UHGV virus genome: UHGV-0074437
Length of the DNA stretch: 28,657 nt
Source of the DNA: a virus
Direction: 5' to 3' (one strand)
This document shows, piece by piece, positions 1,211-28,657 of this stretch. The notes beneath the pieces were generated by a model. That model made no database searches. It saw only the letters and a program-made list of their open reading frames with translations, and was not told the DNA's origin. The number at the start of each line of letters is the position of its first letter. The stretch's first letter is position 1. Both the position numbers and the translations under genes were made by a program.

Positions 1211-1250
1211 TTGACTTTTTGAATAAAGTTGGGTAAATTTGACTCAACGA
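1211..1250 (+). promoter_or_regulatory. Late promoter PR' with presumed qut region (-35 TTGACT 1211-1216, 17-nt spacer, -10 TAAATT 1234-1239)
   Basis: Near-consensus sigma70 hexamers with 17-nt spacing located 43 nt after the Q stop, where lambda PR'/qut lies; the surrounding sequence (TTGGGTAAATTTGACTCAACGATGG) resembles the lambda PR' region as recalled. Confidence 0.6.
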
Positions 1251-1272: not shown

Positions 1273-1310
1273 AAAGCCCTGAGTTAATAGCTCGGGGCTT
1301 TTTGCGTTTT
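1273..1310 (+). terminator. Intrinsic terminator of the short PR' leader transcript (tR'-like)
   Basis: Hairpin AAAGCCCTGAG / CTCGGGGCTTT (8-bp GC-rich stem with one G-U pair, 7-nt loop) followed by TTTTTGCGTTTT, about 30-35 nt downstream of the predicted PR' start. Confidence 0.6.
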
Positions 1311-1530: not shown

Positions 1531-1854
1531 ATGAAGATGCCAGAAAAACATGACCTGTTAGCCGCCATTCTCGCGGCAAAGGAACAAGGCATCGGGGCAA
1601 TCCTTGCGTTTGCAATGGCGTACCTTCGCGGCAGATATAATGGCGGTGCGTTTACAAAAACACTAATCGACGCAACGATGTGCGCCATTATCGCCTGGTT
1701 CATTCGTGACCTTCTCGACTTCGCCGGACTAAGTAGCAATCTCGCTTATATAACGAGCGTGTTCATCGGCTACATCGGTACTGACTCGATTGGTTCGCTT
1801 ATCAAACGCTTCGCTGCTAAAAAAGCCGGAGTAGAAGATGGTGGAAATCAATAA
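1531..1854 (+). CDS. S: Class I holin (lambda S type) with MKM dual-start motif
   Basis: 107-aa ORF beginning [22 protein letters not shown], matching lambda S from memory; hydrophobic transmembrane segments; CCCC...GGGG stem just upstream of the start, as in the lambda sdi structure; 17-nt overlap with the endolysin gene. Confidence 0.93.
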
Positions 1855-2314
1855 TCAACGTAAGGCGTTCCTCGATATGCTGGCGTGGTCAGAGGGAACT
1901 GATAACGGACGGCAGAAAACCAGAAATCATGGTTATGACGTCATTGTAGGCGGAGAGCTATTCACTGATTACTCCGATCACCCTCGCAAACTTGTCACGC
2001 TAAACCCAAAACTCAAATCAACAGCAGCCGGGCGCTATCAGCTTCTTTCCCGTTGGTGGGATGCCTACCGCAAGCAACTTGGCCTGAAAGACTTCTCTCC
2101 GAAAAGCCAGGACGCTGTTGCATTGCAGCAGATTAAGGAGCGTGGCGCTTTGCCGATGATTGATCGCGGTGATATTCGTCAGGCTATCGACCGTTGCAGC
2201 AATATCTGGGCTTCACTGCCGGGCGCTGGTTATGGCCAGTTCGAGCATAAGGCTGACAGCCTGATTGCAAAATTCAAAGAAGCTGGCGGAACGGTCAGAG
2301 AGATTGAGGTATGA
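1838..2314 (+). CDS. R: Endolysin, lytic transglycosylase (lambda R type)
   Basis: 158-aa ORF, sequence recalled as near-identical to lambda R ([39 protein letters not shown]...); canonical S-R-Rz order. Confidence 0.93.
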
Positions 2315-2748
2315 GCAGAGTCACCGCGATTATCTACGCTCTGATTATCTGTATCATCGTCTGCCTGTCATGGGCTGTTAATCATTACCGTGATAACGCC
2401 ATCGCCTACAAAGAGCAGCGCGATAAGACCGCATCCATCATCGCTGACATGCAGAAGCGTCAACGTGATGTAGCAGAACTCGACGCCAGATACACAAAGG
2501 AGCTTGCTGATGCTAACGCGACTATCGAAAGTCTCCGTGCTGATGTTTCTGCTGGGCGTAAGCGCCTGCAAGTCGCCGCCACCTGTGCAAAGTCAACGAC
2601 CGGAGCCAGCAGCATGGGCGATGGAGAAAGCCCAAGACTTACAGCAGATGCTGAACTCAATTATTACCGTCTCCGAAGTGGAATCGACAGGATAACCGCG
2701 CAGGTTAACTACCTGCAGGAATACATCAGGACGCAATGCCTGAAATAA
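2311..2748 (+). CDS. Rz: Inner-membrane spanin Rz
   Basis: 145-aa ORF overlapping the R stop (ATGA); N-terminal transmembrane helix ([18 protein letters not shown]) followed by a charged, coiled-coil-like periplasmic domain; position after the endolysin. Confidence 0.88.
2504..2695 (+). CDS. Rz1: Outer-membrane lipoprotein spanin Rz1, embedded in the +1 frame of Rz
   Basis: 63-aa ORF wholly inside Rz in another frame; signal peptide ending in lipobox-like VSAC, then a proline-rich mature region ([13 protein letters not shown]), the hallmark of Rz1. The exact start (2504 or a later ATG) is uncertain. Confidence 0.75.
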
Positions 2749-2780
2749 TTTTTTTGCAAATCACAAAGTCCATTTAATGA

Positions 2781-2806
2781 GCCTCGCGATGCGGGGCTTT
2801 TTTATG
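2781..2806 (+). terminator. Candidate intrinsic terminator downstream of the lysis cassette
   Basis: GCCTCGC-GAT-GCGGGGC hairpin (7-bp stem with one G-U pair) followed by TTTTTTAT, 33 nt after the Rz stop. Confidence 0.5.
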
Positions 2807-2931: not shown

Positions 2932-3483
2932 ATGAATGATATTTCTATCGAATATCTGAAAGAAGCACTGGAATACACACCAGATTCAGGTGTTATCCGT
3001 TGGAAGCAGCGCCCCAAAAATCATTTTAAGACCGATAATTCTTGGCGGGCGACCAATGCCAATTTTGCCGGAAAGGTGGCAGGCGCACGTGATAATGATG
3101 GATATTTCCGCATCGGAATAGATGGTCGGTTATATAGATCTCATCGTGTCGCCTGGGCGTTACATTATGGCTATTGGCCTGAGAATGAGATTGATCACAT
3201 TTCAGGCGATAGAGGTGATAACCGCATAGACAACCTCCGAACAGTGACTTCGGCAGCCAACAACAAGAATTTGCGCCTTTACTCCACTAATAAAACAGGT
3301 GTCCCTGGCGTAGGTTGGTATAAAGCACGTGGGAAGTGGAGAGCAAAGATAAACGTCTCTGGAAAGGTGAAGCATATTGGTTACTTCGATGATTTCTGTG
3401 AAGCGGTGAAAGCAAGAAAGGCTGCTGAGATGAAATTGCAATATCACGAAAATCACGGAGCCGGCGACAGGCTCACTTTCTAA
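2932..3483 (+). CDS. HNH homing-type endonuclease with a C-terminal AP2-like DNA-binding domain
   Basis: 183-aa ORF; HNH_3-like motif HRVAWALHYGYWPENEIDHISGDRGDNRIDNLR followed by an AP2-like segment GVPGVGWYKARGKWRAKINVSGKVKHIGYFDDFCEAVKARKAAE; RBS-like AAAGG upstream. Confidence 0.75.
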   Translation: MNDISIEYLKEALEYTPDSGVIRWKQRPKNHFKTDNSWRATNANFAGKVAGARDNDGYFRIGIDGRLYRSHRVAWALHYGYWPENEIDHISGDRGDNRIDNLRTVTSAANNKNLRLYSTNKTGVPGVGWYKARGKWRAKINVSGKVKHIGYFDDFCEAVKARKAAEMKLQYHENHGAGDRLTF

Positions 3484-3497
3484 AAGGTAAAGACGCA

Positions 3498-4016
3498 ATG
3501 AATCATCAATTGGCTAATCTCGATTTCCGGGACATGGTGGTTGTTTCTGGTGATCGCGTGATCACAACCTCCCGCAAGGTAGCAGCTTACTTCGACAAGC
3601 AGCATCACCACATCATTCAGAAAATCGAAAAGCTAGACTGTTCGGATGAATTTCTAACCAGCAACTTTTCGCGGGTTACCTATGAACACAAGGGTAATCA
3701 GTATGTTGAATATGAAATTTCCAAAGACGGCGCGATGTACATCATCATGTCGTTTACCGGCAAAAAAGCTGCCGCCATCAAAGAGGCGTTTATCAAAGCA
3801 TTTAATTGGATGCGTGACAGGCTGATGGAGATGGCTCACTCATACCAAAGAGAGCACAACGAGTTAATGCTGGAGTTCATGAAGGAAAAGGATGTTGCCA
3901 GTATGTCAGGACGCTTGCTGAACCGCTGGGGCAGGATCAAAAAACCGCAACTCATAGCAAGAATCGAAAGGCTTGAGCAGCAGGCGCAAATATCGATCCC
4001 CGGACTGCCAAAGTGA
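3498..4016 (+). CDS. Rha-family phage regulatory protein
   Basis: 172-aa ORF; N-terminal region (VVVSGDRVITTSRKVAAYFDKQHHHIIQKIEKL...YEISKDGAMYIIMSFTGKKAAAIKEAFIKAFNWM) fits the Phage_pRha family pattern as recalled; RBS AAAGG 6 nt upstream. Confidence 0.7.
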   Translation: MNHQLANLDFRDMVVVSGDRVITTSRKVAAYFDKQHHHIIQKIEKLDCSDEFLTSNFSRVTYEHKGNQYVEYEISKDGAMYIIMSFTGKKAAAIKEAFIKAFNWMRDRLMEMAHSYQREHNELMLEFMKEKDVASMSGRLLNRWGRIKKPQLIARIERLEQQAQISIPGLPK

Positions 4017-4446: not shown

Positions 4447-4944
4447 ATGGCAAAGCTCACCGACAAACAAGAGCTGTTTGCCCATCCGGATGATGTGTAT
4501 GTCGGAGAGTGTGTGATTTATACCGGCTACATAAATAAGCGAGGGTATGGGCAGAAGCACATTTCACGAAAGCCGCACTACGCACATCGAATCGCATACT
4601 GCGAAGCTAACGGAATTTCGCTAGATAGCATCAAGGACCTGGTTGTTAGGCATAAATGCGATAATCCATCATGCGTGAATCCTGACCATCTGATTATAGG
4701 TACTGTCGCTGACAATAATCGTGACAGGTCAAGGCGAGGCAGAAACTCATACCCTGACCGTTCAGGTGAAAAGAACGGAATGGCGAAATTAAAAGAGTGC
4801 GATGTCATCTGCATTCGACGTGAATATGTCCGCGGGAGCATTGGTAGGGGGCTTAGATCCTTATCAGAGAAATATGGCGTATCGACGACCATGATTGCTG
4901 ACATCGTTAATTATAGAAATTGGAGCAACGTTTCGGGGGTGTGA
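4447..4944 (+). CDS. HNH endonuclease (terminase-associated type)
   Basis: 165-aa ORF; motif HRIAYCEANG...RHKCDNPSCVNPDHLIIGTVADNNRD, typical of zinc-binding HNH endonucleases; located immediately upstream of the terminase small subunit, the usual position for HNH proteins that assist terminase cleavage. Confidence 0.8.
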   Translation: MAKLTDKQELFAHPDDVYVGECVIYTGYINKRGYGQKHISRKPHYAHRIAYCEANGISLDSIKDLVVRHKCDNPSCVNPDHLIIGTVADNNRDRSRRGRNSYPDRSGEKNGMAKLKECDVICIRREYVRGSIGRGLRSLSEKYGVSTTMIADIVNYRNWSNVSGV

Positions 4945-4945
4945 T

Positions 4946-5500
4946 TTGAAACAGCTCACACCTAAGCAGGAACTGTTCTGCCGGGAATATTTAAAAGATT
5001 TAAACGCCACTCAGGCAGCTATCAGGGCGGGTTACAGCGAGAAAACTGCTCGCGCCACTGGTAGCGAGAACCTGTCAAAACCTGACATAGCAGATCGCAT
5101 TGCTGAGCTAAAGGCTGAACGCAATGAAGAGGTAGGTATAGACGCTGCCTATGTATTGCGACGGCTGACTGAAATCGATCAGATGGACGTGCTTGACATT
5201 CTGCTTGCCAATGGCGAACTGAAGCCCATTAAAGACTGGCCTAAGGTATGGCGCACAACGCTATCAGGAATGGATGTCGTCGAGATGGCATCAGCAGATA
5301 GCGCCGCACTTCTGAAGAAAATCAAATGGCCTGACAAGGTTAAAAACCTCGAACTTCTTGGTAAGCATGTTTCTGTTCAGGCGTTTAAAGAGCAAACATC
5401 TACAGAAATAACTGGCGCTGATGGAGGACCAGTCAGAACAGAAATTACCAACTTAACGCCGGAGCAGGCTGCAGAAGCGTATAAAAAAATGATGGGCTAA
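4946..5500 (+). CDS. Terminase small subunit
   Basis: Open frame 4895-5500; likely TTG start at 4946 (GGGGG 7 nt upstream) giving an N-terminus [31 protein letters not shown], typical of the Terminase_2 / P27-family small subunit; directly followed by the large subunit. Start codon is inferred. Confidence 0.75.
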
Positions 5501-5502
5501 GT

Positions 5503-7125
5503 ATGCCGTTACCATTTCCCTTCGATTTTAAACATCCTGATTACCAGATGGTTTTTGAATGGCGGATGGAACGCCTACAGCGCATTCGCCAGAATCCTGA
5601 AATATTGCCTGCACTAAAACAGTTTTACCGAACCAACCCGGCTCAGTTCATCATCGACTGGGGCATGACAACGGACCCGCGTAATATTGATTATGGCCTG
5701 CCGGTGACCATTCCGTTTTTACTCTTCCCTAAGCAGGAGGAGTGGATCCACTGGATTATGGAGCGCTGGGGCAATCGGGAGAATGGTATTACCGAAAAAT
5801 CCCGTGAAATGGGACTCAGTTGGACCGCGATCGGACTGGCCTGCTCGCTTTGTCTCTTCAACAAAGAAATGGTTATCGGTTTCGGCTCCCGTAAAGAGGA
5901 ATACGTCGACAGCACCGGGGACCCGAAAGCATTGTTCTGGAAGGCGCGCAAGTTCGTGGAAACACTACCTGTAGAGTTTCGCGGTTCGTGGAGCGAGAAG
6001 AAGCACGCGCCATATATGCGTGTTGAGTTTCCCGATACTGGTGCCGTTATCAAAGGCGAGGCTGGCGACAATATCGGTCGTGGTGACCGTACCACGCTCT
6101 ACCTGGTGGATGAGGCTGCATTCCTCCAGCGTCCTCTGCTGATTGACGCGGCGCTGTCGCAAACCACCCGCTGCCGTATCGACCTGAGTTCGGTTAACGG
6201 CATGGCGAACCCGTTCGCGCAGAAGCGTCACGGCGGGAAGATACCGGTATTCACATTCCACTGGCGGGATGATCCTCGCAAGGATGAAGAGTGGTATCGC
6301 AGGGAATGCGAGAAAATCGATAATCCGGTGGTGGTGGCACAGGAACTTGATCTGAACTACAGCGCATCAGCGGAAGGCGTCCTGATTCCATCCGAATGGG
6401 TACAGGCTGCCGTTGATGCGCATATCAAACTTGGTATCCAGCCAACAGGCAAACGACTTGGCGCGATGGATGTCGCTGATGAAGGCAGGGACAAAAATGC
6501 ATTTTCCACCCGTCATGGCTTCCTCCTGGAAAATGTGCGGGAATGGTCCGGTGTGGGCAGCGACATTTATCAGTCCGTCGAGAAGGTCTTCGGTTTTTGC
6601 GAACAGGACAACCTCGAAGAGTTTCGCTTTGACGAGGACGGGCTGGGCGCTGGCGTTCGCGGCGATGCACGCGCTATCAACGAACTGCGTAACGCTGCGC
6701 GCCGACCGTCAATACTCGCCACACCGTTTCGAGGTAGTGGCGCGGTATTTGATCCGGATGATGAAGCTGTTCGCGGGGACAACGGGCAAGCCGCCCGCCT
6801 GAACAAGGACTTCTTCGCTAACGCCAAGGCCCAGAGCTGGTGGCGGTTACGTAAACTTTTTCAGAATACCTGGCGCGCCGTGGTTGAAGGTATGGCTTAC
6901 AACCCGGACGAAATCATCTCAATCAGCAGTGGCATGGCACTCAAAGATAAACTCATCATCGAGCTTTCGCAGCCGACCTATTCCATTAATGGTGTGGGAA
7001 AAATCGTTATTGATAAACAGCCTGACGGCACCAAGTCGCCGAACCTCGCCGACTCGGTGATGATCAGCTACGCGCCAATGAATTCAGCCCTGAACATCTG
7101 GGAGCTGCTAGGGAGACAGGCCTGA
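5503..7125 (+). CDS. Terminase large subunit
   Basis: 540-aa ORF starting 2 nt after the TerS stop; size, position, a candidate ATPase Walker-B-like segment ([11 protein letters not shown]) and C-terminal nuclease-like acidic residues consistent with TerL. Confidence 0.88.
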
Positions 7126-25977: not shown

Positions 25978-27141
25978 CTATCTGGCTTGAGATATTGAAA
26001 TAGATTTTGTTTTCCGCCCATACATCAAACGGCTAAGCGATATAGATGGGTTATCTATAAGCTTTGTAAATAAATGTGCTATTATTATGCTTGTGGGAAT
26101 CGTAAACACCCATACATAAATTGGGCTGTATTTATATAGTAAAAGTAACCCTATAGAAAGAATTGTATAATGTATAAGGTATAGCGAGAAAGATATTCTC
26201 CCAAGATAAAGACCAACAGACAGGAACTTACCCTCTTTTAATTTAAGTGAGCACACGATTAATCCAACGGCACCGATAGATGTCACAATATCACCAAGAC
26301 CTCTGTGTGATAAAGTCCATCCATTATTAAATGGGTAGCAATACAGCATTAAAGAAATTATCACCAGCAGGAATATGATTTTCTTGTCTATATTATTCAT
26401 TATTTCATTAGTTCTTTTCACATTTAAAGCAAGGTATGCACCAATTGTAAAAAATAACGAGTAATGAACTGTTAACAGGCTTGAGCTTAGGGGGTCTATA
26501 CCGTATAGATGCGGTTTAGAGTTCATGATAAATATACTAAGCATCGATGCCAACAAGGATAGCAGCACAAAGCGAAAGCCAAGTTTTTTCGTAAAGTACA
26601 GAATTAAAGGAAACGCTATCGAAATTCTAGCCTCGTAAACTAAGGACCATGCTGGAGGGTTTATTTCGAAGTAATTGTAAAACCCCAGCATGCCAATGTG
26701 ATTAACTATTGTTGCTAGATTGAAGTCTGGTTTTGCTACGCCCATCCATCCTTTTTCCCAGGAAAAACCACTTGATTTCATGACTGCAAAGACAATAGCC
26801 ACAAATAATAATGATGCAATGAATGGAATGTATAGGCGAGCTACCCTGGCTAACAGATATCTAAACATATTAAATGGATTTGCTGAGTTGATCATCATTG
26901 TTAAAGCAAACCCACTCAACACAAAGAAAACAATAACAGCTTGATGTCCAGCCCACAGAAAGCGAAATGGTGACCATTCAAGATACGGCCAGATAGTGGG
27001 GTTGTTATATAATCCAGCAACGGTTGTGTGAGCAAGCAAAACCGTTAGAGCAGCATAACCCCTAACTGCATCAAGAGATGGGATTCGTTTTGTATCTTTC
27101 ATTACTATTCTCATTTTAGTTTGTTGAGTCAATACTAACAT
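25978..27141 (-). CDS. Acyltransferase family 3 integral membrane protein (putative O-antigen / LPS O-acetyltransferase, lysogenic-conversion type)
   Basis: Minus-strand ORF with about 10 predicted transmembrane segments; N-terminal region KRIPSLDAVRGYAALTVLLAHT...FFVLSGFALT matches the acyltransferase_3 (OafA/Oac-type) signature; strongly AT-rich. Three candidate in-frame ATG starts (27141, 27114, 27102); the third gives MKDTKRIP, the usual N-terminus for this family. Confidence 0.8.
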   Translation of the reverse strand: MLVLTQQTKMRIVMKDTKRIPSLDAVRGYAALTVLLAHTTVAGLYNNPTIWPYLEWSPFRFLWAGHQAVIVFFVLSGFALTMMINSANPFNMFRYLLARVARLYIPFIASLLFVAIVFAVMKSSGFSWEKGWMGVAKPDFNLATIVNHIGMLGFYNYFEINPPAWSLVYEARISIAFPLILYFTKKLGFRFVLLSLLASMLSIFIMNSKPHLYGIDPLSSSLLTVHYSLFFTIGAYLALNVKRTNEIMNNIDKKIIFLLVIISLMLYCYPFNNGWTLSHRGLGDIVTSIGAVGLIVCSLKLKEGKFLSVGLYLGRISFSLYLIHYTILSIGLLLLYKYSPIYVWVFTIPTSIIIAHLFTKLIDNPSISLSRLMYGRKTKSISISQAR

Positions 27142-28267: not shown

Positions 28268-28657
28268 ATGGGATTTCCATCGCCAGCAGCAGACTACGTT
28301 GAAGAACGCATATCACTCGATAAGCGTCTTATCGCTCATCCTTCAGCCACCTACATGATGGTAGCGGGCTCTACATACCTGCGCGCTGGGATCATGAAGG
28401 GCGCAATGCTTATCGTCGACTCGTCGCTGACGCCGAAGGATGGTTCTCTGCTTGTCTGTGCTGTTGATGGTGAGTTCAGGATCATGCGTTACAGGACGCT
28501 GCCGCATCCTTGCCTGGAGAACCCTGAGAATGGAAGGAGGGAGCCACTACCATCAAAGGATGAGGTATCTGATACATCGCGGCCAGTATTCGGGGTGATT
28601 ACGTACAGCATCAACGATGCTCGCTCTGGCGAGTTCGACGACTGCCCGGTGATGTGA
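28268..28657 (+). CDS. UmuD'-like S24-peptidase-fold protein (natively N-truncated UmuD homolog, humD-like)
   Basis: 129-aa ORF with GGAGG RBS; N-terminus MGFPSPAADYVEERI aligns with E. coli UmuD beginning at the Cys24-Gly25 autocleavage site (as recalled); S24 core motifs present (HPSATYMM, GAMLIVDSS, VCAVDGEF). There is no in-frame upstream ATG. The stop is at the last base of the window. Confidence 0.8.
   Translation: MGFPSPAADYVEERISLDKRLIAHPSATYMMVAGSTYLRAGIMKGAMLIVDSSLTPKDGSLLVCAVDGEFRIMRYRTLPHPCLENPENGRREPLPSKDEVSDTSRPVFGVITYSINDARSGEFDDCPVM

Follow-up and report, generated by a model that had tools for sequence, protein, structure and literature searches.

Two overlapping open reading frames lie at positions 2311-2748 of the window, the whole stretch of 28,657 nucleotides of viral DNA that was analysed here. 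The outer frame corresponds to the i-spanin gene Rz, and the inner one, read in the +1 frame of Rz, to the o-spanin gene Rz1. They stand at the end of a lysis cassette of lambda type, and the features of this part of the window, from the nin genes to the terminator that follows the cassette, are as follows.

1-363, RusA.
360-548, NinH.
545-1168, antiterminator Q of the lambda type (Pfam PF03589).
1211-1239 (+), pR'-like late promoter (TTGACT, 17 nt, TAAATT), located by consensus scan just downstream of Q.
1273-1301 (+), tR'-like intrinsic terminator with a 13-bp stem and a T run.
1531-1854 (+), holin S, 107 aa, with the dual start Met1-Lys2-Met3 as in lambda (Pfam PF05106, 9.6e-31).
1838-2314 (+), endolysin R, 158 aa, a lambda-type lytic transglycosylase (phrog_90 endolysin, 1.6e-63).
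2311-2748 (+), Rz, i-spanin, 145 aa, an ATG-to-TAA open reading frame of 145 codons read from the sequence.
2496-2501 (+), Shine-Dalgarno sequence AAGGAG for Rz1, inside Rz codons 62-64, read directly.
2510-2695 (+), Rz1, o-spanin, 61 codons plus the stop codon, in the +1 frame of Rz.
2510-2566 (+), predicted signal peptide of Rz1, with a basic n-region and a hydrophobic core.
2558-2569 (+), lipobox VSAC of Rz1, with the predicted lipidated Cys20 at 2567-2569.
2779-2799 (+), intrinsic terminator after the cassette, with a 9-bp GC-rich stem and TTTTTT; HK75 annotates the equivalent.

The two genes that precede the pair are close to those of lambda. Holin S was recovered by TIGR01594 holin_lambda (2.2e-37) and shares 105 of its 107 residues with lambda S, and endolysin R is identical to lambda R at 156 of 158 residues and matches the lambda lysozyme of PDB 1AM7 at 2.6e-105. 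No Pfam-A or NCBIfam match was obtained for R at E <= 0.01/0.001, and the NCBIfam search returned no model matching Rz, Rz1 or R. Given the 99% identity of R to its lambda counterpart and its match to PDB 1AM7, the NCBIfam blank for these three proteins and the Pfam blank for R were taken as gaps in the libraries and not as counter-evidence. The stop codon of R overlaps the start codon of Rz (ATGA at 2311-2314), and the spanin pair is found within a lysis cassette, beside a holin and an endolysin.

Immediately downstream of Q, positions 1169-1228 are identical to lambda at 58 of 60 nucleotides, and HK75 annotates pR' at the equivalent place. Judging from this resemblance, the pR'-like promoter is the presumed source of the late transcript for S, R, Rz and Rz1. 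The consensus scan found four promoter-like sites against 2.6 expected, which is not above chance. In HK75, the terminator Tr' is annotated just after pR', and by analogy the tR'-like terminator of the window would be read through by Q-modified RNA polymerase. The intergenic region between Q and S (1169-1530) measures 362 bp, compared with about 676 bp in lambda; its two ends (1169-1228 and the stretch immediately upstream of S) are lambda-like, and its middle has been replaced or deleted. A minus-strand open reading frame at 1309-1467, within this region, corresponds to a RefSeq "hypothetical protein" in a related prophage.

Identity to lambda amounted to 97-100% from position 1514 to about 2413, which covers S, R and the first ~34 codons of Rz, and the sequence that follows is of the HK97/HK022 type. 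This switch from lambda to HK97-type sequence places a mosaic junction inside Rz near 2414, just after the membrane anchor. From the position of the junction, the embedded Rz1 appears to have been swapped together with the periplasmic part of Rz, as a single unit.

Beyond the lysis cassette, these further features were located in the window.

2932-3483 and 4447-4944, two HNH endonuclease genes (Pfam HNH_3, 1.7e-18 and 1.6e-09).
3498-4016, Rha-family regulator, between the lysis cassette and the small terminase gene.
4895-5500, small terminase gene, a mechanical open reading frame from TTG with a 50-nt overlap with the second HNH gene.
5503-7125, open reading frame of 540 aa at the large-terminase position; related records read "TerL protein" or "terminase large subunit".
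25978-27141 (-), Acyl_transf_3 gene (1.2e-31), after the tail-fibre genes.
28268-28657 (+), Peptidase_S24 (LexA/UmuD-like) open reading frame, cut by the end of the window.

Because the frame opened at TTG overlaps the second HNH gene by 50 nt, the real start of the small terminase gene probably lies further downstream. The 540-aa frame at 5503-7125 had no Pfam match at E <= 0.001, and portal and contractile-tail genes also lie downstream of the cassette. For the Acyl_transf_3 gene, a role in lysogenic conversion through O-antigen modification is possible. Scanning the whole window for Rfam families and for tRNAs gave no match. The nin, Q and lysis region is lambda/HK97-like, with about 97% identity to HK97, mEp235 and Dewey, and the contractile-tail morphogenesis module shows 91% identity to Citrobacter phage Omnitron and 87% to induced E. 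coli myoviruses. By these identities, the phage is a hybrid in which a lambda/HK97-like nin-Q-lysis region is joined to a contractile-tail module. The first 6 kb of the window were found at 99% or more over their full length in no E. coli complete genome.

The window resembles the integrated prophage of an enterobacterium, and one might suppose that the spanin genes have stayed intact in a decaying cryptic prophage where the pair is never used. However, RusA, NinH, Q, S, R, Rz, Rz1 and the terminase, portal and tail genes are all full length, and the lysis cassette showed neither an IS insertion nor a frameshift. In addition, the exact Rz protein is present on 14 public contigs and the exact Rz1 on 184, most often under the name "lysis protein" of E. 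coli or Salmonella. Decay of this kind, which bears on the use of the pair and not on its identity, is thus very unlikely.

Two family searches identified Rz. It scored 124 bits (E 4.3e-36) with Pfam PF03245 "Bacteriophage Rz lysis protein", for which the cut-off is 25.4, and was also recovered by phrog_13 Rz-like spanin (1.4e-71). The N-terminal transmembrane anchor corresponds to residues 4-22 (nt 2320-2376), with a mean Kyte-Doolittle hydropathy of 2.6. In the single-sequence AlphaFold2 model of Rz, which had a mean pLDDT of 84.5, one helix (residues 3-96) is followed by a low-confidence flexible linker (97-111) and a second helix (112-144). As modelled, Rz has the organisation of an i-spanin, with an N-terminal anchor, a largely helical periplasmic domain and a central linker. 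The domain map of lambda Rz (TMD, coiled-coil 1, linker and coiled-coil 2) has the same layout as the model obtained for the window (PMC5295617). Two periplasmic cysteines, Cys92 (2584-2586) and Cys143 (2737-2739), were aligned with C99 and C152 of lambda, and Cys143 would provide the cysteine near the Rz-Rz1 interface that a homotypic disulfide requires. Sequence search of the PDB found no solved spanin structure for Rz or Rz1. For Rz, only weak matches (E about 1e-3) were obtained, with ATP synthase subunit b, which likewise has a single TMD and a long helix; they were taken as compositional or architectural resemblance.

The preliminary description had placed a complete lipoprotein gene entirely within Rz in the +1 frame, and this gene was seen there, ending at TAA 2693-2695; the frame offset is (2504-2311) mod 3 = 1. 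Rz1 spans Rz codons 67-129, i.e. 0.46-0.89 of the length of Rz, and lies wholly within the i-spanin gene in another frame. Embedded o-spanins typically run from 0.4-0.5 to 0.9-1.0 of the i-spanin gene, and the position of Rz1 falls in the range reported for about 70% of them (PMC6139136).

One question concerns the start codon of the inner gene, to which 63 codons had been attributed. This count holds from TTG 2504, where the mechanical list of open reading frames opens the gene; no earlier start codon follows the preceding stop in this frame, and TTG is a permitted start in bacteria. However, only 2 nt separate the end of the AAGGAG motif (2496-2501) from this TTG, too short a distance, and 8 nt separate it from ATG 2510. 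Lambda has TTA at the position of the TTG and keeps the ATG together with GAAGGAG, the GenBank record of HK75 annotates Rz1 from the equivalent ATG, and the PHROG profile (phrog_3198, which matches Rz1 at 7.3e-29) aligns from residue 1 of the 61-aa form. Hence, a 63-codon precursor initiated at TTG 2504 is highly improbable, and on these sequence comparisons ATG 2510 is the most likely start, giving 61 codons. The mature Rz1 would be the same in both cases, since the signal peptide is removed.

With Pfam PF06085 "Lipoprotein Rz1 precursor", the product of the inner gene scored 72.5 bits (E 2.2e-20), the cut-off being 27.9. The lipoprotein signal was judged by a rule-based check only, which recognized the basic n-region, the hydrophobic core, the VSAC lipobox and Cys20. 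When Rz1 was aligned with the Rz1 proteins of lambda, as the preliminary description had proposed, and of HK75, the lipobox cysteine was in place, Cys20 being an invariant column. By these features, Rz1 is predicted to be a small lipoprotein with a signal peptidase II signal and a lipobox cysteine, as is characteristic of an o-spanin. The mature protein would have 42 residues (Cys20 and 41 further residues) and begin with CKSPPP. According to the +2 rule of the Lol pathway, lipoproteins with no Asp at position +2 after the lipidated cysteine go to the outer membrane. Since Lys and Ser, and not Asp, follow the cysteine of Rz1 (C-K-S), the protein carries a predicted outer-membrane sorting signal.

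The mature region had also been called proline-rich, a term that is only partly apt. It does contain one PPP run, and 5 of its 42 residues (12%) are proline, whereas lambda Rz1 has twice that content (10 of 41 residues, 24%) and a PPPPP run. Rz1 has no counterpart of lambda Cys29 and no second cysteine. In the AF2 model of Rz1, a C-terminal helix (residues 33-59) was predicted with moderate confidence, whereas lambda Rz1 is considered unstructured (PMC6139136). The model accords with the published prediction that some 47% of the HK97 o-spanin is helical, in contrast to lambda Rz1 (PMC6139136).

In order to evaluate the inner frame against a null model, 5000 synonymous-codon shuffles of Rz were generated. 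A +1 open reading frame of at least 63 codons was present in 47% of them, and the mean longest +1 frame was 63 codons. Since nearly half of the shuffles equal or exceed the observed length, the length of the embedded frame carries no evidential weight; the argument from length was dropped, and the signal-peptide test, homology and conservation were used in its place. A lipoprotein-type signal followed by at least 20 residues in the alternative frame occurred in only 7 of the 5000 shuffles (0.14%). Four minus-strand open reading frames of 37-67 codons also overlap the region (2368-2571, 2460-2660, 2522-2635 and 2593-2736), and minus-strand promoter-like matches occur at 2329-2381; all were taken as mechanical matches.

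To analyse conservation, the gene was taken from 80 IMG/VR contigs and from HK75 (81 related loci in all); with the window added, there were 80 distinct alleles at the nucleotide level. Rz was intact, and Cys20 of Rz1 present, in 80 of the 80 alleles. The full 61-codon Rz1 was found in 77 of them; in two others an early stop removes only the last three residues, and in the remaining one ATG 2510 is changed to ACG, a Met codon lying two codons further on. In 11 of the 66 parsed IMG/VR loci, an upstream in-frame ATG lengthens the Rz1 frame to 70 codons (MPD[T/I]QR[S/N]LL-MLTRL...). The 70-codon, early-stop and ACG variants all leave the mature lipoprotein core unchanged.

The third codon positions of Rz are the second positions of Rz1. 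Polymorphic sites at Rz third positions numbered 56 of 83 outside the overlap versus 21 of 62 inside it (Fisher p 1e-4), and nucleotide diversity at these positions was 0.127 outside and 0.031 inside, a fall of approximately fourfold. The amino acid variation of the two proteins was distributed in opposite ways. Residues 67-86 of Rz, in the distal part of helix 1, vary at 3 of 20 positions, and the overlapping signal peptide of Rz1 at 9 of 19; residues 34-53 of Rz1 vary at 2 of 20 positions, and the overlapping residues 101-129 of Rz, comprising the greater part of the linker and the beginning of helix 2, at 8 of 29. The variable and constrained segments of Rz and Rz1 are complementary and interleaved, and these data show that purifying selection acts in both frames. 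Mutagenesis of the lambda genes revealed that silent domains of one spanin overlie sensitive domains of the other, and the natural variation of the Rz/Rz1 alleles is the counterpart of that mutational map (PMC5295617).

That the +1 frame is a chance open frame encoding nothing, with Rz as the sole gene, could be argued from the 47% of shuffles reaching 63 codons and from the RefSeq/PGAP record of a near-identical E. coli prophage (L083, NZ_CP027355.1 427809-432789), which gives Rz at 2382-2819 as "lysis protein" and has no Rz1 CDS, but this has next to no probability and is excluded by the Pfam and PHROG matches of the product, the alignment of its lipobox cysteine with that of lambda, the rarity of such a signal among the shuffles and the conservation of Cys20 together with the depressed third-position variation of Rz inside the overlap, lambda Rz1 being, moreover, experimentally required for lysis (PMC5295617). 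Family searches, gene context, alignment with lambda and HK75, and variation among the related alleles all bore out the embedded Rz/Rz1 spanin pair of the preliminary description.

The 438 bp of Rz showed 96-97.5% DNA identity to HK75, mEp506, mEp234, HK97, HK446, HK022 and other lambdoid phages of Escherichia and Salmonella. In total, 305 phage records matched this region, where Rz is annotated and, in HK75, also Rz1; many of the matching records list Rz only. At the protein level, identity to HK75 was 95% for Rz and 97% for Rz1, and identity to lambda was 57-60% and 37-40%, respectively, the range depending on the way in which alignment columns are counted. Rz1 of the window is identical to that of IMG/VR locus L049 and differs from that of locus L006 at 3 of 61 residues. 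No nucleotide-identical locus was present in the sampled set, where the best one matched at 427 of 438 positions. HK97, HK022 and HK75 have the same protein lengths (145 and 61 aa), embedded position, lipobox, cysteine pattern and downstream terminator as the window. These phages show few point differences (e.g. Rz Y9, I12, A32, T40/A41 and S101, and Rz1 G16 versus V16), whereas the genes upstream set the window apart from HK97, HK022 and HK75, its Q, S and R being of the lambda type.

In the published classification, the "HK97" family of embedded o-spanins comprises those of HK97, HK022, HK75, P22, Sf6 and others and is kept apart from the "Lambda" family (Kongari et al. 2018, PMC6139136). 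By its full-length similarity at the BLASTCLUST level, Rz1 of the window is placed in the HK97 family. The strict Lambda family is marked by the penta-proline and Cys29, and Rz1 of the window, with 37-40% identity, falls outside it. As judged by these comparisons, Rz1 is homologous to lambda Rz1 at the Pfam level (PF06085) and belongs to a different published sub-family, and the pair is an HK97/HK022/HK75 allele, not lambda's own.

Much is nevertheless shared with lambda: the cassette order S, R and Rz with Rz1 embedded in the +1 frame, the first 39 residues of Rz, which are nearly identical, and both periplasmic Rz cysteines, as well as the 19-residue signal, Cys20, the arrangement of Shine-Dalgarno sequence and ATG, and the AW-M and LN-II-SE motifs of Rz1. 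In contrast, Rz of the window is 8 residues shorter than that of lambda, with a 7-residue deletion after residue 39, and Rz1, with half the proline content, is devoid of Cys29 and PPPPP. The two-component spanins of T4 (PseT.3/PseT.2) and P2 (LysB/LysC) are encoded by genes that are separated or partly overlapped and not embedded, and the cysteine pattern of T4 also differs (none in the i-spanin, two in the o-spanin). No sequence similarity was detected between the pair of the window and either T4 PseT.3/PseT.2 or P2 LysB/LysC.

With the open reading frames, motifs, homology, gene context and dual-frame constraint observed here, we consider it almost certain that 2311-2748 encodes an embedded two-component Rz/Rz1 spanin, formed by the last genes of a lambda-type cassette. 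For expression, lipidation, complex formation and membrane fusion, lambda was taken as the model (PMC5295617, PMC6139136). The cassette would be transcribed late from pR' under the control of Q. Rz is predicted to be a type II inner-membrane protein, held by its N-terminal anchor and extending two long periplasmic helices joined by a flexible linker. Rz1 would be translated independently from its own Shine-Dalgarno sequence and ATG 2510, exported, lipidated on Cys20 and cut by signal peptidase II. The C-terminal ends of Rz and Rz1 would then bind across the periplasm, and the subunits would form covalent homodimers through homotypic disulfides. Once the holin and the endolysin have removed the peptidoglycan, the complexes would collapse and the inner and outer membranes would fuse, which would disrupt the outer membrane and complete lysis.

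In lambda Rz1, the penta-proline stretch and Cys29 both matter for function, and since the HK97-type Rz1 is without them, the mechanistic details established in lambda may not all carry over. In lambda, either Rz C152 or Rz1 C29 is sufficient (PMC5295617, PMC6139136). Because Rz1 of the window lacks a periplasmic cysteine, the homodimer link through Rz Cys143 would be the only disulfide near the interface. From this sole link and the redundancy of C152 and C29 in lambda, it is predicted that the Rz C143S change alone would render an HK97-type pair lysis-defective. The HK97-type pair might be a mechanistic variant, in which the helix at residues 33-59 of Rz1 may pack on the second helix of Rz and the Cys143 disulfide would be essential, a proposal that we put forward tentatively and would not favour on balance. 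If it were true, only its experimental consequence would be new, as the feature differences have been outlined previously (Kongari et al. 2018).

The Rz/Rz1 finding was confirmed as real, ordinary and known in every respect, both exact proteins being already present in public databases. Rz/Rz1 is the textbook example of a gene contained within another gene, and the comparison of alleles provides a clean, small illustration of dual-frame constraint. Automated pipelines still overlook the embedded o-spanin, and once it is flagged the lysis cassette is complete, with a holin, an endolysin, an i-spanin and an o-spanin.
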